Source: an uncultured Gammaproteobacteria bacterium (GTDB lineage: Bacteria > Patescibacteriota > Microgenomatia > CAYQLK01). From it: a DNA stretch of 64,000 bases. A program made the position numbers and the translations under genes. The stretch spans positions 595,396 through 659,395 of the forward strand of contig CAYOLO010000001.1 of assembly GCA_964404855.1 (NCBI GenBank), given 5' to 3'. The notes below the pieces were generated by a model that ran no database searches, had not been told where the DNA came from, and worked only from the letters and a program-made list of their open reading frames with translations. Shown piece by piece: positions 2,800 through 64,000 of this stretch; the first letter of the stretch is position 1; every line of letters begins with the position of its first letter.

Positions 2800-2801
2800 T
2801 T

Positions 2802-3335
2802 TTAAATAATAGAACCTGTGTAGTTTGCGGTTACTATAATTCGTTTACTGTCTAAAAATCCAGAACAAGTATAGAGAGTCATGACTTTTTGGTCTGATTC
2901 TAAGGACACTTTTGCGTATTTGGCTGGCGATTCTGTAATAAGGTCAACTGTAAAGACTTTGGCTTCGCCATTTGCGTATTTGAGCTCGATTGTATCCCCT
3001 CTCTTGACGTTTTTAAGGTTACCAAGGAGATTGGACCAGTTATGACCATAAAACACGCTATTACCTGTTTGAGCTGGTATTGCGCTATCTGTAAGATAAG
3101 TGACGCCGTTTTTGGTAGTTTCGAATTTGCCGTTGTTTCTAGTCGCAGGAATAATAGGTAAATTCACATTTATTGAACTAATTGTAATAGTGTTTGGTTG
3201 AACTGAATTAGATGTTTCTTTAGCAATTAATGGATCAACTGAGGTAGGAATAAAGGTTTGAATATAAAGTCCAGTTCCAAAGAGAATTAAAATTACACCT
3301 GACGCAATCAAACATTTGGAAAGAATGTTTTTCAT
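2802..3335 (-). CDS. sortase family transpeptidase
   Basis: N-terminal TM anchor and the TLYTC active-site cysteine motif characteristic of sortases. Confidence 0.8.
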   Translation of the reverse strand: MKNILSKCLIASGVILILFGTGLYIQTFIPTSVDPLIAKETSNSVQPNTITISSINVNLPIIPATRNNGKFETTKNGVTYLTDSAIPAQTGNSVFYGHNWSNLLGNLKNVKRGDTIELKYANGEAKVFTVDLITESPAKYAKVSLESDQKVMTLYTCSGFLDSKRIIVTANYTGSII

Positions 3336-3356
3336 TGTTGCCGTTTTTTGGCGAAC

Positions 3357-3944
3357 TTATTTGTTTCGGGATTTTTTGATACTCAATCCACCAAGAACTA
3401 GTCCAAGACCAAGGGTCATGAAAGCTAATATATTTGACATATTACCTGTTGTGGCAACGCCTAATATTTCACCACCGCCAATTCCACTACCGAAGTCATT
3501 AGATTTGGAGATCTCTGTGTTGCTAGTTGTACTTGCTCCTCCGACTGAGTGACAGGTGTAACCTTTATTCATAGCTAAATATGGAGCCTTTTCTAGTCCC
3601 CAAATAGAGCCATCCAAAACTAAAATCCAACCTTGATTGACGAATGACTGTACTTCATTCTGAGTTAGATCTGAAACTTTGAACCAATTGGTTTGTATTC
3701 CATTGCCTTCTGGAGGACAAAAACACTGAGTGTATGATTTATCAGATATTGTATATACAGCATCAGAACCGCTAAAGATTCGATTGTCGCCCACTATTCC
3801 ATGAATACCTGTGTCATATTTGACTTTAAGTCCAGCATTTGGAGCAAAACAGTCAGTAAATGGAGGAAGTGTCGCAAAAGCTGAGGTCGCAAGAGGAACC
3901 GATAATGTAATGTTAGCTGCCAGAGCTAAAAATGTTTTTTTCAT
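3357..3944 (-). CDS. secreted surface protein with C-terminal sortase-type sorting signal
   Basis: N-terminal signal peptide. C-terminal LGVATTG-like motif followed by a hydrophobic stretch and KKSRNK basic tail. Immediately upstream of the sortase gene. Confidence 0.6.
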   Translation of the reverse strand: MKKTFLALAANITLSVPLATSAFATLPPFTDCFAPNAGLKVKYDTGIHGIVGDNRIFSGSDAVYTISDKSYTQCFCPPEGNGIQTNWFKVSDLTQNEVQSFVNQGWILVLDGSIWGLEKAPYLAMNKGYTCHSVGGASTTSNTEISKSNDFGSGIGGGEILGVATTGNMSNILAFMTLGLGLVLGGLSIKKSRNK

Positions 3945-14429: not shown

Positions 14430-17351
14430 CTAAATTAGTTTGGAAAGAAATTTTGCAGTATGAGATTTGGACACTTTGGAGACTTCAATTGGTGTACCTT
14501 CAGCAACAACAGTTCCACCACCATCGCCTCCTTCGGGACCAAGATCAATAATCCAGTCTGCGTTTTTGATGACATCTAGATTGTGTTCAATAACAACAAT
14601 CGTATTTCCCTGCTCGACAAGTCTCATTAAAATATTAAGAAGTTTTTCGATATCAGCAAAATGAAGACCGGTTGTTGGTTCGTCAAGAATGTATAAGGTT
14701 TTGCCTGTTGAGCGTTTAGATAATTCGGAAGCAAGCTTAACGCGCTGAGCTTCTCCCCCAGAAAGGGTTGGGGCGGGTTGGCCAAGTTTGATGTATCCTA
14801 AGCCAACATCGACAACGGTAGCTAGTTTGTTCTTAATCGAAGGTATGTTGTTAAAAAACTCTAAGGCTTCTTCTACTGTCATATCTAATACCTCAAAAAT
14901 ATTTTTGTCTTTGAAATGAACCTCTAGAGCTTCATCGTTGTAACGTTTGCCAGTACAAACTTCACAATCGACATAAACATCTGGAAGAAATTGCATTTCA
15001 ATCTTAACCTGACCTTCACCCTCACAAGCTTCACATCGACCGCCTTTAACATTGAATGAGAATCGTCCTGATTTGTATCCACGAATTTTGGCTTCGGTTG
15101 TTGAAGCAAAAAGCTCGCGAATTGGTGTAAAAATACCCGTGTAAGTGGCAGGATTGGAGCGTGGAGTTCTACCGATTGGTGATTGGTCTATCATTATGAC
15201 CTTGTCTAGGCTCTCCGTGCCCATTATTGTGGTGTGACTACCTGGGCGCTCTTTAGCGTGATAAAACTGCTGAGCAAGACTTTTATAAAGAATGTCGTGT
15301 ACAAGGGTTGATTTACCTGAACCAGAAACACCTGTAAAGCAGACAAATTTGCCCAAAGGAATGGTTACATCAATACCTTTAAGGTTGTGTTCGGTAGCGC
15401 CAATTATCGTTAACTCTTTGCCGTCGTGCGGATTAATAAATGATCCAGATTTGGTGGTAATTTTTTTCTTATCAGATAAATATTTTCCAGTTAGCGATTT
15501 AGGGTCTTTTATAATTTGTTGAGGAGTGCCTTGAGAAACAATTACCCCTCCGTGTTCGCCAGCACCTGGTCCAAAATCAAAAATATAGTCTGATTCCAAC
15601 ATCATGTCGCGGTCGTGTTCAACAACTAGAACAGAGTTGCCTAAATCACGCAGTTTCTGAAGTGTTCCAATTAGCCTTACATTATCTCTTTGGTGAAGAC
15701 CAATTGATGGCTCGTCCAAAACATAAAGCACACCAGAAAGACCTGAGCCGATTTGTGAGGCTAAACGGATTCTTTGCGCTTCTCCACCTGCTAAAGTTGT
15801 GGCGGTACGTGATAGGGATAAATAGTCTAGGCCAACATCGATTAAGAACTGTAATCTGGCAGTTATTTCTTTAAGGATTGGTTCAGACACTTGATTATCT
15901 CGCGCATTACCGGCAAATGAAGTTTTAATACTTTTAACCCATTCCAGTGAGTTACGGATTGATTTTTTGGAGACTTGTTCAATATTTAACCCATCGACCG
16001 TGATAGATAACGCTTCCGGCTTGAGCCTTGTGCCTTTACAAGTTGGACAAGTAAGGATACGCATAAATTTTTCGATTTCACCGCGAATGTAGCCTGATTC
16101 TGTTTCCCGATATCTACGCTCAAGATTAGGAATCACACCTTCAAAGGTTGTTTGCCACTCCGCACTTTTACCAAATCGGTTCTCGCCTTGAACTTTAAAT
16201 ACTTTCTCTGAACCGTAGAGTAAAAATTTACGATCAGCATCAGTTAGGTCCTTAATTGGTGTATTAATGGAAAAATGAATTTGTTTGGATGCCTCCTCTA
16301 GAAGCCTAGAAAACCATGTTTCGTGTGTAGAAAGCCTAGACCAAGGTAAAATTCCACCTTGGGCAATTGTTAAATTAGGGTTAAATACCAACTCTGGTTC
16401 AACTTCTAGTTTTGTACCAATACCTGTACAGGTTGGACAAGCTCCGTGGGGCGAGTTAAAGGAAAAAGTTCTGGGTTCAATTTCTGGCAGTGAAATATTA
16501 TCAAATGGACAGGCAAACTTTTCACTAAAAAGATGATCTTCTAGTTCGGTGGGAAAATCAGGAATTTCAAACGAGGCGTCTTGAATTTTGGCAATGATTA
16601 GATTGCCTTCAGCCAGCTTAAGTGCTGTTTCTACAGACTCAGAAAGCCTTTGTTTGTCGGCAACAGGCAAAACAAGCCTATCGATCACGGCATCAATTGA
16701 ATGTTTATTGGTTTTGATTAAGGTAAATTCATCCTCGATGTCATGGATTTGGTCATCAACCCTAACTCTAGTAATACCTCGTTTTCTTAAATCTGTGAAA
16801 AGTTGTGAAAATTCGCCTTTTCTGTCTCTAACAATTGGCGCCAAAACTAGCACACGCACTGGAGGTTTAGCTTTAATATCCCCTAGTTTTTGGATTTCAT
16901 CTACGATTTGAGCAGCAGATTGATGTTTGACCTCGCGGCCACAAACAGGGCAATGCGGATGGCCGACTCTAGCAAAAAGTAACCTTAAATAGTCATAAAT
17001 CTCTGTAATTGTACCGACGGTCGAGCGAGGATTGCGTGAAGTGGATTTTTGGTCGATAGAAATCGCTGGAGAAAGACCGTCTATCTGGTCTACATCAGGC
17101 TTATCCATAACACCTAAGAACTGTCTAGCATAACTAGATAGCGATTCTACATAACGTCTTTGTCCTTCAGCGTAGATAGTATCAAAGGCAAGTGATGATT
17201 TGCCTGAGCCAGATAGACCTGTAAAAACAACAAGCTGATTGCGTGGAATTTGTAATGTTAGGTTTTTGAGATTATGTTCACGGGCGCCAAAAACAGAAAT
17301 GAACTCTTGATTTTTGCTGGTTTTTTTCGGGTTATCTTTGGTGCTAGCCAT
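14430..17351 (-). CDS. uvrA: excinuclease ABC subunit A
   Basis: 973 aa with two ABC ATPase modules ([20 protein letters not shown]), LSGGE signature motifs and zinc-finger cysteines. Confidence 0.95.
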
Positions 17352-39966: not shown

Positions 39967-41148
39967 TCACCGGTGACACTGCGCGAGTGCAGCCTCAGCT
40001 GGTTTACCCATTGGACTAAACCCCAAATCAGGCTTGTTTGGGTCCGGCAGAGTGAGATCCACTTGCCACCAATACAAACCATTGATAAGGGGAACGAAGA
40101 CTTGGCAGGTCGCTTGATAATAACGAAGCTGGGCTTCGTAATCAGCCGGCGACTCAGATAGGTAGTTCCACGGCTTTTGGTACGCTCCCTGTCTGGGGAG
40201 AATTCCTATTTCCGTAAAAACTACAGTCTTGGGGTCATACCCCTTACTGGTAATGTCGGCTATCCAACGCTGCCAGCCAGCAACAAGCGAATCAACGCTT
40301 GCACCAGTTGGTACATCGAGCGGATAGTAGGCATCGATTGAAGGAAAGTTCAGATCGCTGGCAAAGCCGGGGGCTTTGACGTCCCAGTTAGCCGAATATG
40401 TGATTTGGCCATCGTACTGGGTACGAACTACAGCGATTAGCGCTTTCCAAAGAGCGACCTCTGGCTCAAGCGAGACAAACTCGGTGCCGACATTGAGAAC
40501 GGCAACTTTTTCTTCTTGAGCAAGTTTGGCGTAGCCAACCAGAAGTGAGGAGTAGCTGTTAAACCACTGTCCTTTATCTGTTGGACTGAGCTGGCCTCGC
40601 CATTTTCCGTCGGCAACCAAAGAGGACTCATCCAGAATCGGCCTAAGCATAACAGTGAAGTTACGCTTGTGTGCCTCTCGGATAAATATCCTGATGTTGT
40701 CGTCGGTCGGAGTCTTTTTGGGGTCCTTGTAAACCTCCACTGATTGCCAGTTCGACTGGAAAACAGGAAAGACTAGGCTGACAGAATTGATGTTCAGCTC
40801 TGCCAGCCTATTGAGAAGTTTGGGTGCCTTTTCAGCAAAATCTCCTCCGTCGCTGTACACCAAAACCGAAACGCCTGCATGATATGCCAGCGAATCAGTT
40901 CGAGGACTTACCACTCGGTTGATTTTGGGAGTTGGTGTAGCGGTCGGAGTCGATTCTTGAGTTGGCGCGACTGTCTCACTTTCGGAAATTGGAGTTCCGA
41001 TTGTGGTAGTAGCATCTGCAACTTGAGTGCTATCAGATTGCTCCTTAGCACCAGTTTGCCCACAAGACACGACACAGAAAACTGCTACAGCCAGGCTAAC
41101 GAATAGTCCCGCCGACAGCAGAAGGTCGTTTTGGCGCTTCGTGATCAA
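39967..41148 (-). CDS. lipoprotein, glycoside hydrolase-like TIM barrel (GH-A clan-like)
   Basis: Lipobox VVSCGQ. NVGTEF and VVFTEIGI candidate catalytic glutamates. GC-rich. Confidence 0.45.
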   Translation of the reverse strand: MITKRQNDLLLSAGLFVSLAVAVFCVVSCGQTGAKEQSDSTQVADATTTIGTPISESETVAPTQESTPTATPTPKINRVVSPRTDSLAYHAGVSVLVYSDGGDFAEKAPKLLNRLAELNINSVSLVFPVFQSNWQSVEVYKDPKKTPTDDNIRIFIREAHKRNFTVMLRPILDESSLVADGKWRGQLSPTDKGQWFNSYSSLLVGYAKLAQEEKVAVLNVGTEFVSLEPEVALWKALIAVVRTQYDGQITYSANWDVKAPGFASDLNFPSIDAYYPLDVPTGASVDSLVAGWQRWIADITSKGYDPKTVVFTEIGILPRQGAYQKPWNYLSESPADYEAQLRYYQATCQVFVPLINGLYWWQVDLTLPDPNKPDLGFSPMGKPAEAALAQCHR

Positions 41149-42613
41149 GATAGTCCTTCTCCGTAACCAACCCGTGGTTGGTCTTCTCCCAGAAGTGCGG
41201 ACGGGTAGCCAGCTGGTATAGGGCTTTCCAAGTCGCGAAACTTAGTATTGCCCAGTACAGCGGAGCAAGAACCATCCACTTGATGTTGCCATGCAATCCT
41301 CTGACCTTGCAGCCCATCATCACGTAAAGGACGAACAAAACGTTGCCCAACGCGATAGAAAAGATGCCGAGATAGAAGATCGGAAGCGGATACAACTCTT
41401 GGATGAAGGTTGCATTCGTCGCCTGATAGGCAAGCGTCATGAACCAGAAGATCGGATTGACCAGCAGTGTAAGAGGCGTGGTCATTACGATCACCATGAA
41501 GGAGACGAAGTTGACGAAACCCAGATCCCTGTAGAGGCTGACTGGGTTGCGTGAGTGGACGAGGAAAGTAATCATCCCACCCTTCTTCCAGCGCGAACGC
41601 TGGCGAACCAGGTTGCCGAGATGACTGTTGGCTTCTTCCCATGTCACACTGTCCATCAACTTGACCTGAAGACGGCGACGGGCGATACGAATGCCCATAT
41701 CAATATCTTCGGTCACGTTGTACATGTCCCAGCCTCCCAACCCAAGTAGGGTTTGGGTACGGAAGTGATTGGATGTGCCTCCCAAAGGGACAGGCATTCC
41801 TAATCGTCCGAGCCCTGGAAGGATCAGATTGAAGTAGGTCGCATACTCAGCGCTGAAGAACTTCGTAATCCAGTTGGTCTGGGGGTTGAAGTACTCCAGT
41901 TTGGCTTGAATACACGCTACTCGCCTACTGACTTTGCGGAAACAGACGACAGCTTTTTTGAGCTGATCTGGTTCTGGTCGGTCTTCGGCGTCGTAGATAA
42001 CGACAAATTCTCCTGTTGCCCTTTTCAGACCCTCATTACAAGCCTTGGGCTTGGTTTTGAGGTTAGAGTCAGGCATGATCAACACCTCAAAATGAGGCGG
42101 AAGCGCTTGCGAGTTAATCTCGCCAAGAGTCTGGGAGTCCTTTTCTTCCAGAAGCAGAATAATCTGCAGTCGGTTGGTAGGATAATCCAGATTGGTGAGA
42201 TTCACGATTAGCTTGGAAGCTATTTCGTGCTCGTCAAAGAGTGGAACGAGGATTGTGTACCTCGGCAACTCAGGTCCATTAGCAAGAGCATCTAGCTCTG
42301 CCATCGAAACCTTGATGAGTGCCGATTCCAGTGACTTGACTGTCAGCAGGCTCTTGAAGATGATGACGGTGACATAGATCAGAGTGATCGTCCCCGCGAA
42401 CCCCAAAAGAACCGGCATATAGCCAAACATGATGATGCTAGCAACCACACAAGCAACAATTGCGAGTGCGGTAATGCTTTGCGGTATGGTCAGAATAACC
42501 TCAGCGGTCTCTGACTTGGTGCGCGGAGCGAATTTATTTACTACCCCGCGTCCATTTTTGACATGTTCTGGTCCGATCAAAGCTTCCTCCTGTGGGAAGA
42601 AAGAACTGACCAA
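41096..42613 (-). CDS. membrane glycosyltransferase family 2, processive type (QxxRW)
   Basis: IYDAEDRPEPDQL, VRQRSRWKKG and multiple TM segments. GC-rich homolog of the GT2 at 1552..2799. Confidence 0.8.
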   Translation of the reverse strand: MVSSFFPQEEALIGPEHVKNGRGVVNKFAPRTKSETAEVILTIPQSITALAIVACVVASIIMFGYMPVLLGFAGTITLIYVTVIIFKSLLTVKSLESALIKVSMAELDALANGPELPRYTILVPLFDEHEIASKLIVNLTNLDYPTNRLQIILLLEEKDSQTLGEINSQALPPHFEVLIMPDSNLKTKPKACNEGLKRATGEFVVIYDAEDRPEPDQLKKAVVCFRKVSRRVACIQAKLEYFNPQTNWITKFFSAEYATYFNLILPGLGRLGMPVPLGGTSNHFRTQTLLGLGGWDMYNVTEDIDMGIRIARRRLQVKLMDSVTWEEANSHLGNLVRQRSRWKKGGMITFLVHSRNPVSLYRDLGFVNFVSFMVIVMTTPLTLLVNPIFWFMTLAYQATNATFIQELYPLPIFYLGIFSIALGNVLFVLYVMMGCKVRGLHGNIKWMVLAPLYWAILSFATWKALYQLATRPHFWEKTNHGLVTEKDYLDHEAPKRPSAVGGTIR

Positions 42614-42647
42614 GGGTGGAGGCGAAGATGTGACTCCTCACTCCCAC

Positions 42648-44348
42648 TCACTCGATCAATTCCTTACGCTGGTAAATCTGAATCTGCTCATTTTCGAATA
42701 CGAGCAGATAGTGTTGATCCAAAGCTTCAGTGTTATTGAGGCTCCTGTAAACCTTGTCCTGATTGGCTTGCGAGTTGCGCATCACAACCCAGTCGACGAA
42801 TTCGGCCGGGCTATTTAGCGCCGGCTCCCACATTCGGTAGCTTCCCTCATAGAGAATCTCACGAATAGGAAGTTTTGAGCTGACTTGCAAGTCTTCGTTG
42901 CCGTAACTTTCCATCAAGACAAGTCCTGATGTGTAGTTTTGGCTTAGCCAGTAGGCTGCATCACGCTGGGTAACTGAAAGTGGTTTTTCCATGTCCGCCT
43001 TGGGCTCGTTTAGGGTGATAATCTCACCCTGATAAGCCACAAATGCGGAAAAAGCACAAACACCACCTACAATTACCGCACGACTGATGACGAAGTTCTT
43101 GGTCAGGTAGCCTGCAAAGATCGCCAAAGGCAAAATCATAGGCAGAGAAAACCTGACGTTGTACAGATCCCCCGTAACCTGTTCAACATAAAGCGGCCTT
43201 TGACCGAAGTAAAGGGCCGCGACGAAGAACGGGAAAGGAAACAGCAGAGCGTAAACGGGAGCTTTGCGGATATTTTTAGAGTCGCTGACAATGAAGTAAG
43301 CGAGACCGATTAGTCCGAAAAACAGCGTAACGGCGCCTGCAGTTTCGTAGGTTGCGATTGAGTAGGTCTTGAGCGCGATCCAGAAGTTTCCAACGGCTTT
43401 TTCAGACTCTCCAACCCAAAGGGAAGGTTTGGCATACTCACCGTACTGGAAATACAAGGGGTTGCCAAAGATTTGATAGTTCCAGATCAGCCATCCGACA
43501 ATGCCGAGGCTGGCTAGAAATGTCAAAAAGAAGACTTCTCCCTCAACACGCTCTTTCGGCATTTTTTTGTTGATGCAGACTACGCCCCAAAGCGGAACGA
43601 AAAGGGCCAGAAGAATCCAGCCTTCGTACCGCGTCATGGTTGCGCAGATTAGCATCAGCGCGGTCGCCAACCCATAAACGATGTTGGAAACAGGCTCGTC
43701 GATTTTTTGCGTCCACCTTATGAAAAAGTAGACACTGCCCGACAAGAACATACACAAAGGCAGTTCTGTCATAGCTGTCGACTGCATATAACCAACGTTG
43801 GGGTTGGCCACGAAAACCAGACTAGCTACGACACCAGCCCAGCGTGAACCGGAGATTGTTTCGGTTATCTTGTACAGAAAAACGGAAGTCCCCACAAAAC
43901 AGAGCATCGAAGGAATACTTCCTGCAATACCTGTCTTGTAGAGATAATCATTCCAGATCAGTGGCTGCATGAGCAGATGCGGTAGCGGTGGCCAAACTCC
44001 GCCGAGCTGAGCCAATCCCGGTGTGGGGCTGTCAACAACTCTTTTGGCGATGAGTAGATGCGATTGTGCGTCTTTGTAGACCAGAACTAGGTCGTTGGTG
44101 TAGTAGTAGACGAAGTTGACTACAGACACCAGAAGTGTGATGGTGATGATGACCAAAAGCAGGTTGTCCCGCTTGTGGCTATCTTCGCTAGTAACGACTG
44201 CCGGACGCCTTACGGCTACGGTCTGGCGAACGTTCGTTTTGGTTGCAACTTGCTTGGTTGCGACTGACTGAGACCGAACTTCGGACGTAACCAGTTTGTA
44301 ACCGGTTCGCCCGCAGTAATAAGCCACAGCAAAAATTGAGCGCAGCAT
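42648..44348 (-). CDS. GT-C superfamily polytopic membrane glycosyltransferase (ArnT/PMT-like)
   Basis: 566 aa with more than 10 TM segments. Conserved acidic motif in the first periplasmic loop (YKDAQSHLLIAKR). GC-rich. Confidence 0.55.
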   Translation of the reverse strand: MLRSIFAVAYYCGRTGYKLVTSEVRSQSVATKQVATKTNVRQTVAVRRPAVVTSEDSHKRDNLLLVIITITLLVSVVNFVYYYTNDLVLVYKDAQSHLLIAKRVVDSPTPGLAQLGGVWPPLPHLLMQPLIWNDYLYKTGIAGSIPSMLCFVGTSVFLYKITETISGSRWAGVVASLVFVANPNVGYMQSTAMTELPLCMFLSGSVYFFIRWTQKIDEPVSNIVYGLATALMLICATMTRYEGWILLALFVPLWGVVCINKKMPKERVEGEVFFLTFLASLGIVGWLIWNYQIFGNPLYFQYGEYAKPSLWVGESEKAVGNFWIALKTYSIATYETAGAVTLFFGLIGLAYFIVSDSKNIRKAPVYALLFPFPFFVAALYFGQRPLYVEQVTGDLYNVRFSLPMILPLAIFAGYLTKNFVISRAVIVGGVCAFSAFVAYQGEIITLNEPKADMEKPLSVTQRDAAYWLSQNYTSGLVLMESYGNEDLQVSSKLPIREILYEGSYRMWEPALNSPAEFVDWVVMRNSQANQDKVYRSLNNTEALDQHYLLVFENEQIQIYQRKELIE

Positions 44349-44861
44349 TTAGGCTTTACCCTCCGAAGAAGTCTTCTGATGGATGACGACAGGGACTTGG
44401 GGTTCGTGGTGCTTTATTGCGAACACGAACCTGTGACTGGCGATGTACGACAGCACAAGTCCAGCGACCGTGCCGAAAACAAGTGACGGGAGGTGGTTGA
44501 AAACCAGAATCGACAAACCAAACACAAAAGTGTTGGTAATCAAGCTGGTAAGAGCCATGATATTGAACTTCACGAGTGAAGCAATCCCACCTAGGAAACC
44601 ATGAGCTGGTTTCTTTCTGTCACTCCATGTGAAGTGAAAACTCAGGAGGTAGTTGGTTTGGGTTGAGACAATGAAGGCAAAGGCGTTAACCGCCGTTATC
44701 TGCCACCAAAGTTCAAACCAAGTGGTTGAGAGAATACCGAAGAAGAGCGCGTACTGGAGGCTCGTGCAAACGAGGCCGACAGTCAAAAACTTGATGACGC
44801 GCTGGAGGTTAATCCGCTCGCCAAAGGTCTGAAGGACAGGACCGGATACGATTGGAACCAC
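44349..44861 (-). CDS. GtrA-family polysaccharide synthesis membrane protein
   Basis: 4 TM segments; KFLTVGLVCTSLQYALFFGIL is typical of GtrA. Start codon uncertain. Confidence 0.6.
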   Translation of the reverse strand: MVPIVSGPVLQTFGERINLQRVIKFLTVGLVCTSLQYALFFGILSTTWFELWWQITAVNAFAFIVSTQTNYLLSFHFTWSDRKKPAHGFLGGIASLVKFNIMALTSLITNTFVFGLSILVFNHLPSLVFGTVAGLVLSYIASHRFVFAIKHHEPQVPVVIHQKTSSEGKA

Positions 44862-47813: not shown

Positions 47814-48845
47814 TTAGAACCTGCGGCTCGAACCTTTAGATTTGCCGCCTGGGCCGGATCGGAAACCTCTAGTGTCCGTAAACGACTTCATTTTGCCGTT
47901 ACGTCCGGTCGTAAAGGTACCGATGCCCGGAACGTGCTGTGATGTGCCGGTAAGGTTGCCTCGGTTGTCGTGGTGGAAGGTCAGGCCGAGGCCTGGCACC
48001 TGCTGGGAAGAACCTCGGGTATTACCCCGACGGTCTTGGTTGAAGCTCAGGCCTGGTAGGCCCGAACGGGTCGAGGAACCGGTATGGTTGCCGCGGCTGT
48101 CGCTGCGGAATGTCAGGCCGAGTCCGTCGTTGCGAGGGCCTTGATAGCCACCGCCACGAGGTGCTCGTGGTCTTGGATGCTCGCGGCAATAGAAATCCCT
48201 GCTCGCATCGGGTTCAAACGGCAGATTCATCACGGAGTGCTGACCACCGACGCAGTAGGCAGCGTACTTCGGTTGAGGATGTTCCTTGCAGTGGAACGGT
48301 CGGTCGCCATTTGGCTGGAATGGAACTTTGACTGTGTGTAACCCGCCGGTGCAGAATGCGTCGAACATCGGCTTGGGGTGATCGCGACAGTAGAAGTCAC
48401 GCTTGGGGTCTGGAGCTCGGTTGAGCCCCTGAACTGTGTGACTACCGCCGACGCAGTACCCAGAGAATTTTGGTTGCGGATGGTCGCGACAGAAGAAGTC
48501 GCGCTTGGGGTCGGGTTGGAATGGAATCTTGGTTTGATGGTCCCCGCCAACACAAAACGCATCGTACATGACACGAGGCGCTGATTTGTGGTCTCGGCAG
48601 TTGAACGGTCTGCTACTGTCCGGTTCGAATGGGAGTTCGACCGTGTGCCCGCCGTTTTTGCAGTGGGCGGTGTACATTTCACGCTGAGGGCGTGTTTGCT
48701 GACTGCCACCGCCTTTGCGGGCAGCACGGCAATTTGGGCACCGCGTGGGTTGTGAGAATCCTTTCTCAGCGAAGAATGTCTGTTCCCGTTCGGAGAAGTC
48801 GAACCTCTGCGAACAGTCTTTGCAGGTGAGGGTTTGGCTGGGCAC
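47814..48845 (-). CDS. zinc-ribbon + tandem Cys/His repeat + RGG/Gly-rich tail protein (putative nucleic-acid binding)
   Basis: N-terminal CKDC...CPNC ribbon. Five ~34-aa repeats F/YCxGGxH(T/S)V...PFxPDxxRDFxC(R/K)(D/E)HPxP. C-terminal GLGLTF(R/H)xDxRGNxTG repeats. Confidence 0.6.
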   Translation of the reverse strand: MPSQTLTCKDCSQRFDFSEREQTFFAEKGFSQPTRCPNCRAARKGGGSQQTRPQREMYTAHCKNGGHTVELPFEPDSSRPFNCRDHKSAPRVMYDAFCVGGDHQTKIPFQPDPKRDFFCRDHPQPKFSGYCVGGSHTVQGLNRAPDPKRDFYCRDHPKPMFDAFCTGGLHTVKVPFQPNGDRPFHCKEHPQPKYAAYCVGGQHSVMNLPFEPDASRDFYCREHPRPRAPRGGGYQGPRNDGLGLTFRSDSRGNHTGSSTRSGLPGLSFNQDRRGNTRGSSQQVPGLGLTFHHDNRGNLTGTSQHVPGIGTFTTGRNGKMKSFTDTRGFRSGPGGKSKGSSRRF

Positions 48846-56611: not shown

Positions 56612-58693
56612 ATGGGATTATTTTTAACGCTTGATTTGCACTCTATATATCTGTTTATTTTTTCCATTGGTTTAGGTTTAGGCATCGGCACTGTAATAAT
56701 AAAAAATGTTTTTTATTGGGCGGTAAAGAATGGAAAGCTCACTTGTGATGAGCTAAGGATTATTCGTATTTTACAAAGAGTGGGTTGGGTGGCTATTTTG
56801 ATATATGGTTTGGGAGGGATTGGTCTTTTTTCACTCGCTTACGAAGTAATACTCGGCCTTGGAATTTTTCGAGCGAGCATGACAATTGTAGTGTTACTAA
56901 TTGTTAATGAAATATTAATTTCATTTTATTTTTTATCCCGCATGACCAAAGGTGGTAATAATGGCTTTGTACTCGACGCGATTATTTTAGGTAGCGGTGT
57001 TGTCTCCGCGGTTTCGTGGTTCTTTTTACTACTTCATCATATTTTTTATCAGACTTATATCGGCTACTTTACATTCTTGACACTGTACACGAGTGTGCTC
57101 GCCATATTTGTACTTATAACTTGGTTTGTAAGGAAAAACTCAATGACTTCTCGTGATTTGGGCGTGATAAAACGCTTTTTTCTTATCACATTATTGTTTA
57201 CGGGGATTTTAGTAATCCTATCTTATGTAACAACTAATTACACAATTGGGCTGGGTAGTTTGAAGAGAAAAGAAATAGTTAATGTTGTGCTTAACACATA
57301 TACTGCCGACGATGTAGCACTTCACAATAACTCAGAGGACTGCTGGCTAATTATCGATAAAAAAGTGTTCAATACTTCAGAAGCCTCTCGACTACATCCT
57401 GCAATGTTTAATTGTGGACAAGATGTAAGTGAAAATTATCACAAAAATCACGGAGCAACTATTCGAGATAAAATGATGAAGTTCCATATTGGCGAGCTCG
57501 GCGAGGGCAAAGGTGTGCAGAATGTGGACATTCCGTTCGAAAAACATACAACACTTAGCCCATACCGCGAACTATATGTGGAGGAAAATACCTGGAATCC
57601 CCGTGAGCTCATGATTGTTGTCGAGAAAAATGCAGAAAATCTTCTTATTATTGATGGAACCACTCACAAGCTAGTTGGGCGCGTCCATAATGTCGGATAT
57701 CAACCGCATACTTCGGTTTTTTCATCTGATGCTAGCAATATGTATATTATTTCGCGCGACGGATGGTTAACAAAAATTAATCTAAAAACATTAGAGCCTA
57801 CCCAATCGGTAAATGTTGGTGAAAATTCCCGTGGTACGGCAATTACTGATAACGACAAATATGTAGCGGTTGGAAATTATTCACCTGGGAATCTTGTAAT
57901 ACTTAATGCTGAGTCGATGGAAATACTCAAAACGATTCCTCTTACTGCAAATGTGGATGGAAAGGATGTTGAATCGCGAGCTGGAGCTGTGGTTGAAGAC
58001 GGAAACCGCATTATTGTGGCGCTTAAGGATGCAAATAGCGTGTGGGCGATAGATACAAACAAGCCTGACTTTCCTGTGACTAACAAGTTTGATGGGATTG
58101 GTAAGAATATACCTGCACTGCATGACGCGTTCCTAACTCCAAACGGTAAACATTACATTGTAGCCTCGCAAGGTTCAAAAACTGCTTGGGTTTTGGATTT
58201 GGCGACTATGAAGCCGGTTGCGGAAATTGAGACTGGGGAAACACCACACACCGGCCCAGGTGCGACTTGGGAGAATTATATATATGTTCCTGCGCTTGGA
58301 GAGGGACTAATTACGGTTATTGATACTAAGACATGGAAGCCTGCAAAATATATAAAAACGGGAGGACCGGGACTTTTTGTTCGTAGTTACAGTAAGGATT
58401 CGTCATATCCTTATGTGTGGGCCGATACTGCTTTTGGCGAGCATAAAGATGAGATATATGTGATTGATGCTCGGATTAATGAAATTGTTAAGACAATTAT
58501 CCCTGTAAAAGGAGAAAGCTCCTGGCATCCTGAATTTACTTACAATGGTGATTTTGTATATGTCGTTTCTCAGTCTGCGAATGAAGTAGAAGTCTATGAT
58601 GCTCACACCTTCGAACTGGTTGAGCGTATTAAATCAGATACACCATCAGCAATATCGAATGTCGGCCTTCGTATCGAAGAGCCTGGACTATGA
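56612..58693 (+). CDS. polytopic membrane protein with cytochrome b5-like heme-binding domain and C-terminal YVTN/cd1-type beta-propeller
   Basis: About 6 N-terminal TM segments. HNNSEDCWLIIDKKVF...HPAMFNCGQDVSENY...HGA is a cyt-b5-like pattern. Repeated beta-propeller blades follow. Confidence 0.55.
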   Translation: MGLFLTLDLHSIYLFIFSIGLGLGIGTVIIKNVFYWAVKNGKLTCDELRIIRILQRVGWVAILIYGLGGIGLFSLAYEVILGLGIFRASMTIVVLLIVNEILISFYFLSRMTKGGNNGFVLDAIILGSGVVSAVSWFFLLLHHIFYQTYIGYFTFLTLYTSVLAIFVLITWFVRKNSMTSRDLGVIKRFFLITLLFTGILVILSYVTTNYTIGLGSLKRKEIVNVVLNTYTADDVALHNNSEDCWLIIDKKVFNTSEASRLHPAMFNCGQDVSENYHKNHGATIRDKMMKFHIGELGEGKGVQNVDIPFEKHTTLSPYRELYVEENTWNPRELMIVVEKNAENLLIIDGTTHKLVGRVHNVGYQPHTSVFSSDASNMYIISRDGWLTKINLKTLEPTQSVNVGENSRGTAITDNDKYVAVGNYSPGNLVILNAESMEILKTIPLTANVDGKDVESRAGAVVEDGNRIIVALKDANSVWAIDTNKPDFPVTNKFDGIGKNIPALHDAFLTPNGKHYIVASQGSKTAWVLDLATMKPVAEIETGETPHTGPGATWENYIYVPALGEGLITVIDTKTWKPAKYIKTGGPGLFVRSYSKDSSYPYVWADTAFGEHKDEIYVIDARINEIVKTIIPVKGESSWHPEFTYNGDFVYVVSQSANEVEVYDAHTFELVERIKSDTPSAISNVGLRIEEPGL

Positions 58694-58869
58694 TTTGGAA
58701 TTGAATTAATGAATTATCGCCTTATATCTTAAATGCGATTTTTGGTTTTTTAAAAAAATATTTTTGTGAGCCAGTTAAGTTTAGATTGGAACTCTGTAAT
58801 TGACTTCTTCCAGCGCTTAAACACTACTTTCCAGCAACTTAGAATAGAAGTGCCTAATTATTATACCGT

Positions 58870-59493
58870 ATGAGTAACGACGCTGTTGTAAAAACCAGAG
58901 TAGGATTTGTTGAGGAAATTACCAAGGCTACCGACACTAAAGCTATTAAAACGAGCTTCCATGAGTTAGTTGCTTCTCTCTTGGGTAAGGAGGACAAAAA
59001 ACTAGAGCATATTCAGGAACTTGCAAAGAATTGGATAGGTGGAGACACAGAAGCAAGTAAGGCATTTAATGACGAAATAGAGGCATATTGTGAGCAGTTT
59101 CCCGTAGAAGTGGGTATACAACTCCGTAGCTCCCTCCATGTACTAGACAAAGACGCTAGCCTTGCCCTCCGAAGCAATTTAATTAAAGAGCATGGCATTA
59201 CTAAAATTACCGATAAGTTATTCCTAGACTTAGCACTTAATGCCTATTTTAGAGCGCTTAGGTGTTCTGCTATTTATCATGCACTAATACAAAACAAGGA
59301 TGGAGAAATACAAATATCACAAGTCCGTACCAACTTCTTAAAAGAGCTAAGTAAGCAAATAGAAATGGCAAACGAGCAGTTTTATAGATTTATAAAGCAA
59401 CTTGAGAAAAATGACAGTCCACCCGTGAATGTAAAGATAAATACCAAGTCTACATTTATCGGTCAAAACCAACAATTTAACAAAAACGCCTAA
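58870..59493 (+). CDS. hypothetical protein
   Basis: 207 aa, helical, no known domain. Confidence 0.4.
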   Translation: MSNDAVVKTRVGFVEEITKATDTKAIKTSFHELVASLLGKEDKKLEHIQELAKNWIGGDTEASKAFNDEIEAYCEQFPVEVGIQLRSSLHVLDKDASLALRSNLIKEHGITKITDKLFLDLALNAYFRALRCSAIYHALIQNKDGEIQISQVRTNFLKELSKQIEMANEQFYRFIKQLEKNDSPPVNVKINTKSTFIGQNQQFNKNA

Positions 59494-59512
59494 TGATTTA
59501 GGAAAAAATGCT

Positions 59513-59830
59513 ATGAAAAAAAATCTTGTGGAAAACACACCTAGACTTACAACTAATATAGTTAGCAACTTAGGCTTGGCAGAAATGGAAAGTATTGTTA
59601 TAGAAAATCAAAAGGTAAACTTAACGACTACCAGTTGTAATTTTGGTGGTAAAAGATATTGGTTTACTTGTCCTAGGTGTACTTCCAGAGTTGGTACGCT
59701 TTTTTGTCCCTATGGAGAAGATTTATACGAGTGTAGGGTGTGTAAGGGTCTTAGGTATGAACTATCTATAAATCGGAGGTCAAAAAATGAACACTTTATT
59801 AAACTTTTGCACCAAATTAAGTCTCTATGA
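59513..59830 (+). CDS. small 4-Cys zinc-ribbon protein
   Basis: CNFGGKRYWFTCPRC ... CPYGEDLYECRVC pairs of CxxC. Confidence 0.45.
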   Translation: MKKNLVENTPRLTTNIVSNLGLAEMESIVIENQKVNLTTTSCNFGGKRYWFTCPRCTSRVGTLFCPYGEDLYECRVCKGLRYELSINRRSKNEHFIKLLHQIKSL

Positions 59831-61177
59831 GTTGCTAGGTGGTGGCGGGTTAGTTTGAGGTGGCTCTACTAGCCATCCATTCTGTTTTAAGAAAGCCTTT
59901 AATAAGTCGTCACTTACATCCTCATACCCCAAGCTCCAGTAAATCTCTTTGATAAAACTAATAGTGTGGTCTTGTAGGGATTGGTCGTTATGGAGCAACG
60001 AGGTTTCTATTTCTACTTTCCATAGGTATTTGTTTTTTAATGGTACTTCTTCATCCTCATGCCAGAACATCCCACCTCTATATCCGTTAGGGACGATACG
60101 TTTTAATTGCGCTCCATTTATTCCATCCAATTCTACGTATCCATAAATTGCACCTTGGTAGTTAAATTTTGTGTAGAAATTCTTTAGAGCTTTAAGAAAC
60201 ATAACGTAATAAACCGCTAGCGTCTCAATATAGATATGTTTTCTTCTCTCATCTACACGCAATACGTCATCTGCTAAAAAGAGTAATCCAGTAGAAAATA
60301 CTTGTTGGCAACTCAACCCACCGTCAAAAGAGTGCTGGAAGCGGAATACCCCCTCTTGGATAGGCTTTACGTTTAAGTCTGGAAAATCTGTACTCCCTTT
60401 CCTATACCTAATTTGCTCCATGTTTGTTTTAATATCTAACGGGGTACAAAGTGCTTTTTGAGGATAATAGGGCTGGGCTAATATGGTCAACATTGAAGTC
60501 TCACTTCCGAGGGTCTTTTGGTAGTATTGTGAGTGATATGCTGGTGGTTGTTGTCCTTGTGCCTTAGCATTTTCAATCCGTTCTTGAAATTTTGCTTTTT
60601 CTACAGCGATAAGTTTTAGACGCTTTCTTTCTTCTGCTTTTAGCCCATCGTCGTAGTTTTCTTTGGCTATCCTTATATAATTCTCTCTAGCCAACCGTGC
60701 TTTATCTTTTTTACCAACCAATAGCTCAACTGCTTCTGGACTGGCAAGGCTAATTGGGTCTGTAATGTTTCCACTACGAACATAGATATTAGCCTCATTA
60801 TGGACATAATACGGCGTCCTATCTCCCTCATAAATCCTTACTAATATAAAAACTTTTCCATTTACTTCATTGGTTACATGCAAGTCGTAGAGCGGTCTTT
60901 GGTCTACGGAAGTAGCGTATTGATGTATTTTATCCGCTAGCTTGCTATCAAAAATAATGCCGTCAAAAACAACTGGTTTACCAGATTTGTCTTCTTCTAC
61001 GCCTATTATGATTACGCCACCTCTGCTATTGGAGAATGAGGCAAAATGCTTGGCGAGACCTTTACTCGGAAGTTCTTTTTTGTAATCTAACTGAAATCCC
61101 TCAATGTAACCCTGTTTACAGAACTCAACAACCTCTTCAAATGTGAAAGTGTCTATAGGTTTGCTTAGTATTTGCAT
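59825..61177 (-). CDS. AlbA_2 (Schlafen-like) domain protein
   Basis: N-terminal FEEVVEF...E...FASFSNSRGGVIIIGVEEDKSG matches the AlbA_2 putative DNA-binding domain. C-terminal region unknown. Confidence 0.6.
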   Translation of the reverse strand: MQILSKPIDTFTFEEVVEFCKQGYIEGFQLDYKKELPSKGLAKHFASFSNSRGGVIIIGVEEDKSGKPVVFDGIIFDSKLADKIHQYATSVDQRPLYDLHVTNEVNGKVFILVRIYEGDRTPYYVHNEANIYVRSGNITDPISLASPEAVELLVGKKDKARLARENYIRIAKENYDDGLKAEERKRLKLIAVEKAKFQERIENAKAQGQQPPAYHSQYYQKTLGSETSMLTILAQPYYPQKALCTPLDIKTNMEQIRYRKGSTDFPDLNVKPIQEGVFRFQHSFDGGLSCQQVFSTGLLFLADDVLRVDERRKHIYIETLAVYYVMFLKALKNFYTKFNYQGAIYGYVELDGINGAQLKRIVPNGYRGGMFWHEDEEVPLKNKYLWKVEIETSLLHNDQSLQDHTISFIKEIYWSLGYEDVSDDLLKAFLKQNGWLVEPPQTNPPPPSNS

Positions 61178-61205
61178 AATTTAGTGTCATGTAATTAAGT
61201 TGGAT

Positions 61206-63461
61206 TTAGCTTCTAAACCGTAGCTTAATATAATCCTGTGCTTGTGAGCCTTGCAGTTCAGACGTAGAGTTACCAGCACGGACATAAAAGCGCTGGCTTT
61301 GACCATCCTTGACGTAGATAGGTACTCTAGATGGCAAGCAGTCTATGGCAAGCATACGCTTACCCTCATGGTCTTCAAATCTTGGGTGGAGGTATACCGT
61401 CCAATGAGAGCCTATTCTGTCATTTAGCAGATTTACTAAATGTAAGTGCAACTTATCATCATTTTCAAAGCCATCTACACTTAATCCTAGTGCTTCTTTA
61501 TCATCCGAAACACCAATTAAGAGTGTCCCGCCTTTGCTATTAAGAAAACCCGCAATGGTTTTTAATACACTTAGTTCTATTCTTGGGTCTGGTTGTCCTG
61601 TATGTAAATTAGTTCTTAGAGTGGACTTAAACTCAACCGCTCCTGTCTCTCCTTGCGCAATAATATCGGCAATAGATAGGTGCGATACCTCATCATCTTG
61701 TTTTAAGTCTGATTTTAATTTGTGATAAGCGTCTGCAATTATCTGCGAAATACGCTCTCTTCTCCTCATTAAAAACTCTCTGTACTCCATTTCTTCCCAG
61801 TTATCGGGGAGACCATGCCAGTAATACATCTTTTTAATTTCTTGTGGTGAGAAGCGAGATACTATTTGTGGTACGTACTCTTTAGGGTTTGTATCAGAAA
61901 TTGCGGAGTTATCATTCCATTCCACAATCGCATAGTTAGCAATTTGGTTCGTATCTCTAAGGTCTATTATGCCGTGGGTTTTTAGGTAGGCTTTAGGATA
62001 TAGGTGGTGTCTCTCCAGAGCCGAGCGAGTGGATTTAATTGAAGCGTCTATTAAATCTGAAACTTTTTGCTTTGAAAATAGTGCGTCTGCCTCTAGGAGA
62101 ACTAACGAAGCATAAAAGGCAAAAAGAGATGGACTACGTGGTGATGAAGTTGCAAGGCTATTGGGTAGGTTGATAGACCAATAGTCGTCTGTAAACACCT
62201 CTGCACAAATACGCTCTAACTCACCGATAAACTCATCTGCCTCTGTTACGTTTCTAAACCGTGCTAAGTCAAACTCCATAGCGCTCTCTGGTGAGCCTGT
62301 AAATCGTCCTGTTAAGCTGGACATAAAGAACCAACGGGCGATTACCTGTCTTAACTTAAACTCTTCTACTTTGTATTCTGTACGCCCTATAAGGTAGAGA
62401 GTGTAGGCAAACATTAGGTTAGTTTGGGAGCTTATGTAATCGCTATTACGGTAGCCAGATAGTGCTATGGCTTTGAGGAAATCGTGCCAGTAGGTGAGAT
62501 TTAACACACGGGATTGAGCATTTTTAAGTACCTCAAATTGGTCAATTCTTCTTTGCTCACTAAACTCACCCGTCTCTAAATCCTTACCTCTTAAAATTGA
62601 GTAGACGTAGTGTAATCTCGCTCTCTTAAAACCTAAGCCTACGCTTACTCTTAGTAATTGGTCTGGGTCTGGTTGAGAAACTAAATTATATGGCGATGGC
62701 TGACCAGTTGAGGGAGTTTTAGCCATGCGACAAAAATCTTCTAGCATAGTTCTACCCTCATCCCAGAATACGGACATTAAGGTAAGGATAAAGTCCGATT
62801 GGTTAAGTGGTTTACCCTCGCTATTTATACGGACAAATATCTCTGCTACTTGCTCCTCTGTAATAGCAGAAGATAATTCCAATGCCGTAAAAGGGAAATT
62901 TAGTAGGTTAGATAATCGTGTAATTGACTGTCGTATTTTCTTTACATCTTCTGGAGTAAGGCTTGCCACCTCTTGATTATTTTGGATATACGTATCTACA
63001 AGTTCAAAAATATCTGTAGATTTATTCCAAAGCATGGAGATATTAGGGATGTAAGACCTGTCTTTTTTTATGGCGGCGTCCGATACTGCAAAGCGTTCAG
63101 TAATAGGGTTAAATGATATTTCTATCTTTTCTTTTTGGTAGTTTTCTCTCACTACTTCTACACCTTGGATAACCGCAAAGAGTGAGGTAAGTCTTTGTTG
63201 ACCGTCTACGATAAGCAATCTCGCAGGTTTTTGCTTGGCATCTGCTCCAATTTGTCTTGCTTCCTCAACAAAAGCATTTTGCCAAAAAAGTAAGTATCCA
63301 ATTGGGTAGCCCCGATACATACTGTCAAAAAGGTCTCTAACTTTCGTATCTTTCCAAACAAAAGGGCGCTGTATGTCTGGCAAACCTATCTCGCCCATCT
63401 CTATGTAGTTGACCAGAGTGCCTAAATCGTAGCGTACTTCTTTGAATAATCTATCTGCCAT
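61206..63461 (-). CDS. GmrSD-family Type IV restriction endonuclease (DUF262 + DUF1524) fused to C-terminal AlbA_2 domain
   Basis: N-terminal LPDIQRPFVWKD...YPIGYLLFW (DUF262). HHLYPKAY...NYAIVEWNDN (DUF1524 His-Me finger). C-terminal GETGAVEFKSTL...FLNSKGGTLLIGVSDDKEALG (AlbA_2). Confidence 0.75.
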   Translation of the reverse strand: MADRLFKEVRYDLGTLVNYIEMGEIGLPDIQRPFVWKDTKVRDLFDSMYRGYPIGYLLFWQNAFVEEARQIGADAKQKPARLLIVDGQQRLTSLFAVIQGVEVVRENYQKEKIEISFNPITERFAVSDAAIKKDRSYIPNISMLWNKSTDIFELVDTYIQNNQEVASLTPEDVKKIRQSITRLSNLLNFPFTALELSSAITEEQVAEIFVRINSEGKPLNQSDFILTLMSVFWDEGRTMLEDFCRMAKTPSTGQPSPYNLVSQPDPDQLLRVSVGLGFKRARLHYVYSILRGKDLETGEFSEQRRIDQFEVLKNAQSRVLNLTYWHDFLKAIALSGYRNSDYISSQTNLMFAYTLYLIGRTEYKVEEFKLRQVIARWFFMSSLTGRFTGSPESAMEFDLARFRNVTEADEFIGELERICAEVFTDDYWSINLPNSLATSSPRSPSLFAFYASLVLLEADALFSKQKVSDLIDASIKSTRSALERHHLYPKAYLKTHGIIDLRDTNQIANYAIVEWNDNSAISDTNPKEYVPQIVSRFSPQEIKKMYYWHGLPDNWEEMEYREFLMRRRERISQIIADAYHKLKSDLKQDDEVSHLSIADIIAQGETGAVEFKSTLRTNLHTGQPDPRIELSVLKTIAGFLNSKGGTLLIGVSDDKEALGLSVDGFENDDKLHLHLVNLLNDRIGSHWTVYLHPRFEDHEGKRMLAIDCLPSRVPIYVKDGQSQRFYVRAGNSTSELQGSQAQDYIKLRFRS

Positions 63462-63555
63462 ATTTATATTTATAACTATAGTCCAAAGTCTTTAGCATTT
63501 GTATTTAATCAGTTGATTTTTTGTAACAAATGCTAAATAATGATAAGTAGATTAT

Positions 63556-63723
63556 ATGGCAAAAGATGACCTTTTTTCAATAGAAGAAGTGGCTAAGACG
63601 CTCAAAGTTTCGTATATTACCGTTTACAGGTGGATTAGGGCTAATAAATTACCGTCTTTTAAGGCGGGTAAGCAGTATAGAATAAAAAAAGTAGACCTAG
63701 ATACTTTTCTAAAAGTTAAATAA
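63556..63723 (+). CDS. excisionase-family HTH DNA-binding protein
   Basis: 55 aa; LFSIEEVAKTLKVSYITVYRWIRANKLPSFKAGKQYRIKKVDLDTFL is the typical Xis/AlpA-type HTH. Confidence 0.6.
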   Translation: MAKDDLFSIEEVAKTLKVSYITVYRWIRANKLPSFKAGKQYRIKKVDLDTFLKVK

Positions 63724-63731
63724 AGATAAAT

Positions 63732-64000
63732 ATGAGCGACCAAATCAATAAAATAAACAAAAAAGCCACCGTTAATTTAGAGGAGCTACTAAAAAGCGAC
63801 GCACCCTATCTTGTAGAAGATGGCAAAGTAAACTTAGAGAAACTAAAAGGCTTGCTAACAGGTAAAACTACCGAAAAAGAAGACGACAGATTTTATTTTA
63901 ACTGGGCTGGCAAGGATAAGGTTTTCCAAGCTATCCAAGCACCAGCCTACTCAACACTAGCACCTCGCAAAGATAAATCTATCGGATGGGACGAGACCGA
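63732..64000 (+). CDS. N-terminal fragment of Type III restriction-modification Mod-like DNA methyltransferase (continues beyond window)
   Basis: FYFNWAGKDKVFQAIQAPAYSTLAP resembles the LNWxGK...L motif at the N-terminus of Type III Mod methylases. Confidence 0.45.
   Translation, partial: MSDQINKINKKATVNLEELLKSDAPYLVEDGKVNLEKLKGLLTGKTTEKEDDRFYFNWAGKDKVFQAIQAPAYSTLAPRKDKSIGWDET

Follow-up and report, generated by a model that had tools for sequence, protein, structure and literature searches.

At the right-hand end of the 64,000-nucleotide (nt) stretch analysed here lies a gene for a protein of 751 amino acids (aa), in which a BrxU-like GmrSD body is joined to a C-terminal Schlafen (AlbA_2) nuclease domain, as judged from Pfam, PADLOC and homologues. 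The stretch covers positions 595,396 to 659,395 of contig CAYOLO010000001.1; we call the whole of it the window and give all coordinates as positions in it, those of genes being taken from the list of open reading frames (ORFs). The fusion gene (61206..63461, minus strand) is followed after 28 nt by a stand-alone prokaryotic Schlafen gene coding for 450 aa (59825..61177, minus strand; Pfam SLFN_AlbA_2), and a Type III restriction-modification (R-M) operon starts divergently on its other side. We consider it likely that a mobile defence island has its edge here and that it stacks three autonomous modules, that is, a single-gene GmrSD-Schlafen system, an independent Schlafen and a Type III R-M system. 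What we observe is this domain content, conserved catalytic motifs, modularity and no obligate pairing of the two Schlafen genes; the locus is an ordinary modular defence island. An earlier note on this DNA had also called the region a defence island, and the Pfam and PADLOC searches agree with it, recovering the Type III R-M start, the GmrSD-type fusion and the second AlbA_2 protein; all four ORFs that it had described are in the ORF list where it had placed them.

The GmrSD-Schlafen fusion protein

Pfam gave two matches for the 751-aa protein, GmrSD_N/DUF262 (PF03235) at residues 15-226 (E 2e-33) and SLFN_AlbA_2 (PF04326) at residues 605-735 (E 5e-15), which bears out the claim of a GmrSD-type protein with a DUF262 head and an extra C-terminal AlbA_2 domain. 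The DUF262-Slfn class has been defined by more than 100 aa of PF04326 together with PF03235 in one polypeptide (PMC13056530, Methods), and the fusion carries both in one chain, PF04326 over more than 100 aa. An exact-sequence look-up of the protein returned no match. Over 100 homologues, full-length and 59-99% identical, share both Pfam domains with it, and 37 fusion homologues were aligned (alignment A1), next to a wider alignment of relatives (A4).

The head, a DUF262 or ParB-like NTPase domain (residues 15-226; 62784..63419, minus strand), contains QR at 31-32, RDLFDS at 42-47, DGQQR at 86-90 and FxxxN at 209-213, the motif definitions being those of PMC8565348 and the TgvAB preprint. Within these motifs, Q31, R32, L44, F45, S47, D86-R90, F209 and N213 are invariant in A1. 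The PADLOC model HEC-05, which represents the BrxU family (Payne et al.), matches residues 15-244 (E 4.8e-34), and a phmmer comparison with BrxU (7p9k) gave E 9e-10, significant in the N-terminal domain only. An alpha-helical linker region (residues ~227-480; 62022..62783, minus strand) separates the catalytic domains, as in the overall fold of BrxU and SspE.

The earlier note had also read a DUF1524 nuclease into the part that follows. As a Pfam assignment this did not stand: DUF1524/GmrSD_C (PF07510) has no match at E<=10 in the whole protein or in the fragments 240-600 and 430-600, and it is found in none of the 43 full-length relatives of residues 430-600 at E<=1e-3. The HHLYP...N...N stretch of a His-Me nuclease did find indirect support, from HEC-05, the predicted fold and invariant residues. 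The putative His-Me (beta-beta-alpha-metal) DNase region (residues 481-582; 61716..62021, minus strand) consists of an ERHHLYP strand, a loop with N505 and N509, and a helix with N518. Positions 353-593 of the 600 in the HEC-05 profile match residues 332-579 (E 5e-7), so that the match reaches the end of the profile. The AlphaFold2 (AF2) model has strands at 483-486 (ERHH) and 510-513 and a helix at 515-521 that includes N518, with a predicted local distance difference test score (pLDDT) of ~74-86 for the blocks of these strands and this helix and block means of ~74-91 over the region. H485 and H486, which open the HHLYP of residues 485-489, as well as N505 and N518, are invariant in A1 and at least 90% conserved in A4.

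BrxU has the functional motifs RLFDS, DGQQR and DHIYP; its residues D474, H475, N485, N519 and E528 have been probed by mutagenesis, and DHIYP and N519 are catalytic (PMC8565348). The DHIYP of BrxU reads HHLYP in the fusion, with Asp replaced by His. When a profile of diverse relatives was compared with PDB sequences, the N...N stretch was collinear with BrxU 502-575, N518 falling on BrxU N519, a C-terminal match that is sub-threshold on its own. Because of the HEC-05 match, the AF2 strands and helix, the collinearity with BrxU and the invariant motif residues, we regard the body as a diverged enzyme of the GmrSD/BrxU type that escapes the Pfam model and has a putative His-Me DNase.

The Schlafen/AlbA_2 nuclease domain (residues 605-735; 61257..61649, minus strand) contains E605-x4-E610-x-K612, that is, E605-TGAV-E610-F-K612, and these positions are invariant in the 37 homologues. 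Ex4(E/D)xK is the catalytic motif of Schlafen tRNases (PMC13056530). AlbA_2 had been proposed to be a nucleic-acid-sensing module here, which is probably not the case: since the 450-aa protein keeps this motif too, both AlbA_2 copies are likelier effectors than sensors. Taken together, the NTPase, His-Me DNase and Schlafen active sites of the fusion are all invariant in the 37 homologues, which come from many phyla.

Judged by its relatives, the fusion is a GmrSD-like enzyme complete in itself, to which the Schlafen domain has been added. The Pseudomonas putida plasmid pKF715A encodes a 598-aa stand-alone DUF262 protein whose whole length can be aligned with residues 15-582 of the fusion (31% identity, E 2e-90); its sequence comes to an end at the point where, in the fusion, the linker to AlbA_2 starts. 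A search with residues 430-600 against 1.84 billion representatives gave 838 relatives, and among the 43 full-length ones the C-terminal add-ons were AlbA_2 (15), Mrr_N (5), DUF4268 (3), RAMA (2), ankyrin (1), DUF4357 (1) and HEPN (1-2). The whole subfamily of GmrSD-like bodies is under-annotated, as DUF1524 matches none of them. We also saw the body with swappable modules at either its C- or its N-terminus in P0246, P0298, P0300, P0310, P0328 and others, in proteins of up to ~1,190 aa.

These data bear on two other ways of reading the fusion. AlbA_2 was at first counted among the DNA/RNA-binding domains (PMC5714182), and sister proteins hold add-ons of the DNA-reader type (Mrr_N, RAMA, DUF4268) at the same position, so the AlbA_2 of the fusion might be a non-catalytic binder or sensor of nucleic acids which targets or gates the DNase and leaves the His-Me nuclease as sole effector. 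We regard this as unlikely, given that the catalytic residues of the motif are unchanged in 37/37 homologues, that HEPN RNase domains occur at the AlbA_2 position as well and that the SAMD9 domain is now deposited as a tRNase (9o0d). Conversely, the GmrSD-like body could have lost its DNase and do no more than sense NTP or DNA on behalf of the Schlafen RNase. The missing DUF1524 match, the replaced Asp of DHIYP and the description of fused domains as sensors in PMC13056530 would all fit, but H485, H486, N505 and N518 are conserved as given above, BrxU H475 and N519 have collinear counterparts in the catalytic His and the metal-binding Asn, and stand-alone relatives of 580-600 aa retain the motif although they have no other effector. 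A loss of the DNase thus appears quite unlikely to us.

The family is spread widely. For a defence protein it (P0001-P0120; L004-L083) is unusually conserved, with 53-64% identity over the full 750 aa among sequences labelled Planctomycetota, Chloroflexota, Proteobacteria, Spirochaetes, Acidobacteria, Bacillota and methanogenic archaea (Methanomicrobiaceae, Methanospirillum); the mean column identity of the 37 sequences in A1 is 73%. Three invariant catalytic sites and ~60% identity across bacterial phyla and methanogenic archaea argue that every domain of the fusion is under selection.

The genomic settings were compared among 80 species-level representatives of the fusion loci. Components of Type I R-M systems are found near the fusion in 16 of them and a Type III Mod with Res in 3/80. 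In L008 the fusion sits between hsdS and hsdR. Among the close relatives, it comes after a Type I hsdRSM operon, in the order hsdR-S-M, in L001 and L002 (82% fusion identity), and L003, L004 and L166 have the same gene arrangement as the window. In L165, where the fusion is 88% identical, HTH, Mod and Res are present without the 450-aa gene, and the DNA homology with the window ends exactly at the fusion stop codon (window 61206); an 87% identical fusion (L164) stands alone among the housekeeping genes recA, recX and rny. GmrSD-like genes are often part of R-M and BREX loci or adjacent to them (Payne et al.; TgvAB preprint), and the fusion family fits this tendency.

A phage-borne origin was considered too. 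Only 2 full-length and 2 body-only relatives were found in the 2.9 million contigs of IMG/VR and no full-length one in INPHARED; given this scarcity, we take such an origin to be unlikely.

The neighbouring 450-aa Schlafen gene

The second AlbA_2 protein that the earlier note had seen directly downstream on the same strand, with an unassigned C-terminal part, is there as described: in Pfam, SLFN_AlbA_2 matches residues 29-142 (E 5e-15), and no family matches the rest of the 450 aa. With PF04326, Ex4(E/D)xK and a fused non-Slfn domain it is a prokaryotic Schlafen. Its AF2 model (pLDDT 88.5) starts with the Schlafen nuclease domain (residues 26-142; 60752..61102, minus strand), which has the motif E26-x4-D31-x-K33; in the family alignment of this Ex4DxK protein E26 and K33 are invariant and D31 is conserved to at least 90%. 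Then follows a single helix of 60 residues (147-206; 60560..60739, minus strand; pLDDT 84-97), likely to be a coiled-coil oligomerisation element judging from the model, and then an alpha/beta domain (residues 229-432; 59882..60493, minus strand), which is a candidate sensor. The family has 174 homologues conserved over their full length, mostly from metagenome-assembled genomes of the candidate phyla radiation (CPR) or Patescibacteria type, and most are labelled Moranbacteria, Parcubacteria, WWE3 or Omnitrophota.

In 13/79 loci of this family, including L090, L099 and L103, a LexA homologue is encoded just upstream (gene -1 or -2). It was on the opposite strand in the loci inspected, and one that was checked has LexA_DNA_bind and Peptidase_S24. 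This neighbourhood could be inherited synteny of the CPR type, or it could be a link of Schlafen regulation to the SOS response, reminiscent of the connection between SLFN11 and DNA damage.

We wanted to know whether the fusion and the 450-aa protein form a pair. The earlier note had treated the second AlbA_2 protein as a partner and had suggested looking for co-occurrence in other genomes; we ran this comparison on the fusion loci and on 80 metagenomic loci of the 450-aa family, and a conserved pairing did not emerge. The 450-aa family is present in 1/80 fusion loci, namely L004, whose fusion is a 98%-identical twin of the one in the window. Any DUF262 gene is found in at most 2/80 loci of the 450-aa family, and the relatives at 87-88% identity lack the 450-aa gene. 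A sensitive AlbA_2 hidden Markov model (HMM) detected some second AlbA_2 gene within 10 kb in 7/80 fusion loci and in 0/80 loci of the 450-aa family (Fisher p = 0.014); in 4/80 fusion loci, L004 among them, it is directly downstream and co-oriented. Those that were checked belong to the common HATPase_c_4 (+/- Fic-like_C) class of Schlafens and not to the 450-aa family, and the excess of 7/80 over 0/80 is what the clustering of genes in defence islands would give. Examples with AlbA_2 and HATPase_c_4 are L048 (11166-12803), L050 (11310-12737) and L061 (12230-13771, also with Fic-like_C), and in L035 (658-2340) AlbA_2 is combined with Fic-like_C.

The strongest form of pairing would be that the two genes can work only together, for example as a hetero-oligomer with the 450-aa protein as sensor and the fusion as executor. 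Both genes point the same way with 28 nt between them, the same pair is found in L003, L004 and L166, and second AlbA_2 genes are modestly in excess at the fusion loci. Against this, among the 80 fusion loci the 450-aa gene accompanies only the 98%-identical twin, the second AlbA_2 genes of other loci are of a different class, DUF262 genes are nearly absent from the loci of the 450-aa family, the homology to a close relative breaks exactly at the fusion stop codon, and EcoSlfn7, a protein of the same class, has been described as a single gene (PMC13056530). We therefore hold an obligate pair to be very unlikely. A single-lobe Schlafen gene just downstream of a DUF262-Schlafen fusion recurs, with neighbours of different classes, in the clade of the window and in 4/80 unrelated loci; that this marks a working hetero-oligomer is in our view highly improbable. 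If it were true, one lobe from the fusion and one from its neighbour could together clamp tRNA in the way that the N- and C-lobes do in eukaryotic SLFN11-14, and a sensor borne by the neighbour could control a protein in which a Type IV DNase is present as well. The 450-aa protein most likely works by itself, with its C-terminal domain as the gate.

The Type III operon and the limits of the island

Between the fusion and the Type III operon lies a divergent intergenic region (63462..63555, no strand assigned) with promoter-like sites on both strands and a conserved block that resembles a promoter or operator. This block, GTTGATTTTTTGTAACAAATGCTAAATAATGATAA at 63513-63547, is invariant in five loci, one of which is just 77% identical overall, and it contains a promoter-like TTGATT-17-AATAAT and the short inverted repeat TTTGT-A-ACAAA. 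It may be an operator for the helix-turn-helix (HTH) protein encoded next to it.

This protein of 55 aa (63556..63723, plus strand), whose gene stops 8 nt ahead of Mod, belongs to the HTH_17 or excisionase family of DNA-binding proteins (Pfam HTH_17, E 1e-15; NCBIfam TIGR01764, 2.5e-16), as the earlier note had supposed, and in L003, L004, L165 and L166 its gene is always between the fusion and Mod. The last gene, for a Type III Mod methyltransferase (63732..64000, plus strand), runs off the window after its first 89 codons; the 89-aa fragment (63732-63998) matches PADLOC MTase_III (E 7e-14). In L004 the complete Mod has 661 aa (MTase_III 3e-145, N6_N4_Mtase) and is directly followed by a Res of 870 aa (REase_III 7e-220, ResIII and RE_endonuc), then by small ORFs and a large serine recombinase. 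Res directly follows Mod in L165 and L166 as well, and in the window its position falls past the end. By these matches the gene at the window end is a genuine Type III Mod, so the claim of a Type III Mod start was right.

The HTH protein also matches mad1 in PADLOC (5.5e-9) and MAD1 in NCBIfam (52.3 bits), which raises the question whether HTH and Mod belong to a methylation-associated defence (MADS) system instead of Type III R-M. The NCBIfam score is below the curated cut-off of 80, and L004 continues with canonical Type III Mod and Res, small ORFs and the serine recombinase, with no further mad genes. We rejected this reading of the HTH protein as extremely unlikely.

On the other side of the fusion, the gene of a Cys-rich (CxxC...CxxC) protein of 105 aa (59513..59830, plus strand) runs convergently to that of the 450-aa protein, with an overlap of 6 nt at the end of the latter, and a 207-aa protein (58870..59493, plus strand) is part of the shared island segment. 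Neither ORF has a family match in Pfam, PADLOC or NCBIfam. The pattern in the 105-aa ORF is zinc-ribbon-like, and a 52%-identical copy occurs in L003, placed one gene further off. We considered both as conserved accessories of the 450-aa protein and rejected this, as they are present only in the closest island relatives.

The left limit of the segment that the window has in common with the twin islands L004 and L166 is at 58763 (no strand), as determined by blastn. From there onward the DNA is homologous to L004 (95.9%, 58763-64000) and to L166 (93.3%). Beyond the equivalent position L004 has a large serine recombinase, and the L166 contig ends within ~20 nt. The island in L004 is in fact flanked on both sides by large serine recombinase genes (1759-3480 and 14659-16188), and the counterpart of window 58763 falls within the one on that side, ~40 nt from its 3' end. 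No recombinase ORF was found upstream of 58763 among the listed window ORFs at 52-58.8 kb. As the segment shared with L004 ends at 58763, just after an unrelated cytochrome-d1-like gene, we regard the island as a transferable unit.

The gene directly outside this limit (56612-58693, plus strand) codes for a 693-aa protein whose N-terminal region is hydrophobic and made of several helices; it also has a haem domain resembling cytochrome b5 and a beta-propeller of the cytochrome d1 (nitrite-reductase) type (E 5e-68). Further away, the window has a block of 49-51% GC at 39967-44861, compared with ~38% for the genome, which encodes GH113, a family-2 glycosyltransferase, a PMT-type mannosyltransferase and GtrA; this envelope-glycan block was probably acquired horizontally. 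An rRNA operon as the explanation of the GC-rich block at 40-50 kb was rejected, since Rfam gives no rRNA anywhere in the window. A second GC-rich patch (47814-48845, minus strand, 52-55% GC) codes for a 343-aa protein of repeated treble-clef zinc fingers (zf_Tbcl, zf_Tbcl_2).

Known relatives, proposed mechanism and meaning

A GmrSD-AlbA_2 fusion paired with an AlbA_2 partner had been thought not to be a textbook arrangement. The fusion architecture is not new: it was listed by Jablonska et al. in 2017 (PMC5714182), and DUF262-Schlafen fusions are described in PMC13056530 (Perez Taboada et al., Nat Microbiol 2026), where they account for 1.8% of the 5,930 prokaryotic Schlafens. The class has also been validated as anti-phage: its member EcoSlfn7 protects Escherichia coli against a broad set of phages and lowers T7 plating ~540-fold (PMC13056530). 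Going by the class description, the fusion resembles EcoSlfn7 in having PF03235 and PF04326 in one polypeptide, the Ex4(E/D)xK motif and a neighbourhood of defence genes. It differs in that its clade comes from uncultured organisms of low GC content (~38%), and in the His-Me DNase of the fused part, which is conserved in the family of the window and which PMC13056530 does not discuss. In a blastn search, neither the gene in the window nor a gammaproteobacterial homologue had a DNA-level match in 5,426 complete E. coli genomes. Since no complete E. coli genome has detectable DNA similarity, the fusion probably represents a different clade of the EcoSlfn7 class.

BrxU, or HEC-05 (PDB 7P9K), shares with the fusion the DUF262 head with RLFDS-like and DGQQR motifs, the helical linker, the collinear C-terminal His and Asn of the His-Me fold and an embedding that is often beside systems of the R-M type; unlike BrxU, the fusion has HHLYP for DHIYP, no Pfam DUF1524 match and an extra Schlafen domain of 170 residues. 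The TgvAB pair of a Vibrio cholerae Type I R-M operon is similar in that a GmrSD-like protein has an adjacent second gene beside R-M. However, TgvA and TgvB are both DUF262 proteins and mutually dependent, whereas the neighbour in the window shares the Schlafen domain only and its co-occurrence is not conserved. The 450-aa protein can be likened to RorSlfn5, which belongs to another Schlafen class, is a sensor-gated tRNase (PMC13056530) and combines a Schlafen nuclease with a C-terminal Ig-like sensor: it too has an N-terminal nuclease with the motif and a C-terminus that does not look enzymatic, in a single-gene module. The eukaryotic tRNases SLFN11/12/13/14 and SAMD9 are different, as their Schlafens have two lobes per chain plus helicase or other domains, while prokaryotic Schlafens have one lobe and must oligomerise.

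From these likenesses we propose how the three modules might work; the enzymatic activities, their triggers and the coupling of the DUF262 head to both nucleases are read from sequence and from analogy. The operon of HTH, Mod and Res would cover unmodified DNA. The single-gene fusion, transcribed divergently from it, would consist of an NTPase and DNA-sensing DUF262 head, a helical linker, a His-Me DNase and a Schlafen RNase. BrxU goes through an ATP-driven dimer-to-monomer cycle (PMC8565348), and by analogy NTP binding at DUF262, together with foreign and probably modified DNA, may switch the oligomeric state of the fusion and license the His-Me DNase. The same switch could free or activate the Schlafen domain, which would then cut tRNA as activated Schlafen tRNases do, and one polypeptide would thus offer direct restriction with translation arrest as a back-up. 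Schlafen RNases have been reported as back-up effectors beside modification-based systems (2026 BREX survey). The 450-aa Schlafen would act independently, its C-terminal alpha/beta domain being a sensor that gates the tRNase, as suggested by RorSlfn5.

Several points speak against the reading as three autonomous modules. Pfam DUF1524 never matches, and the DNase call rests on a family-specific HMM, fold similarity and motifs. AF2 modelled the fusion with no more than moderate confidence (mean pLDDT 71), and the active-site loops of DUF262 came out poorly. EcoSlfn7 is strongest against T7, which has unmodified DNA, and this makes a purely modification-dependent trigger uncertain for the class. 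Finally, the gap of 28 nt suggests that the fusion and the 450-aa gene are co-transcribed, and a cooperation of both is possible in this lineage.

To present the fusion plus its partner as a new two-gene system would be over-reading, as the fusion class is already catalogued and its anti-phage activity validated. What makes the family worth attention is that the motifs of NTPase, His-Me DNase and Schlafen RNase are all kept in one chain. Because of this, the fusion family appears as a clean candidate for a single protein that joins direct restriction with tRNA-cleaving back-up immunity. The paper on prokaryotic Schlafens treats the DUF262 part as a sensor only (PMC13056530). Automated annotation under-calls the DNase, since Pfam DUF1524 misses the whole subfamily. 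The swappable modules on the GmrSD body (Schlafen, HEPN, Mrr_N, RAMA, DUF4268) provide a map of how Type IV enzymes are extended.

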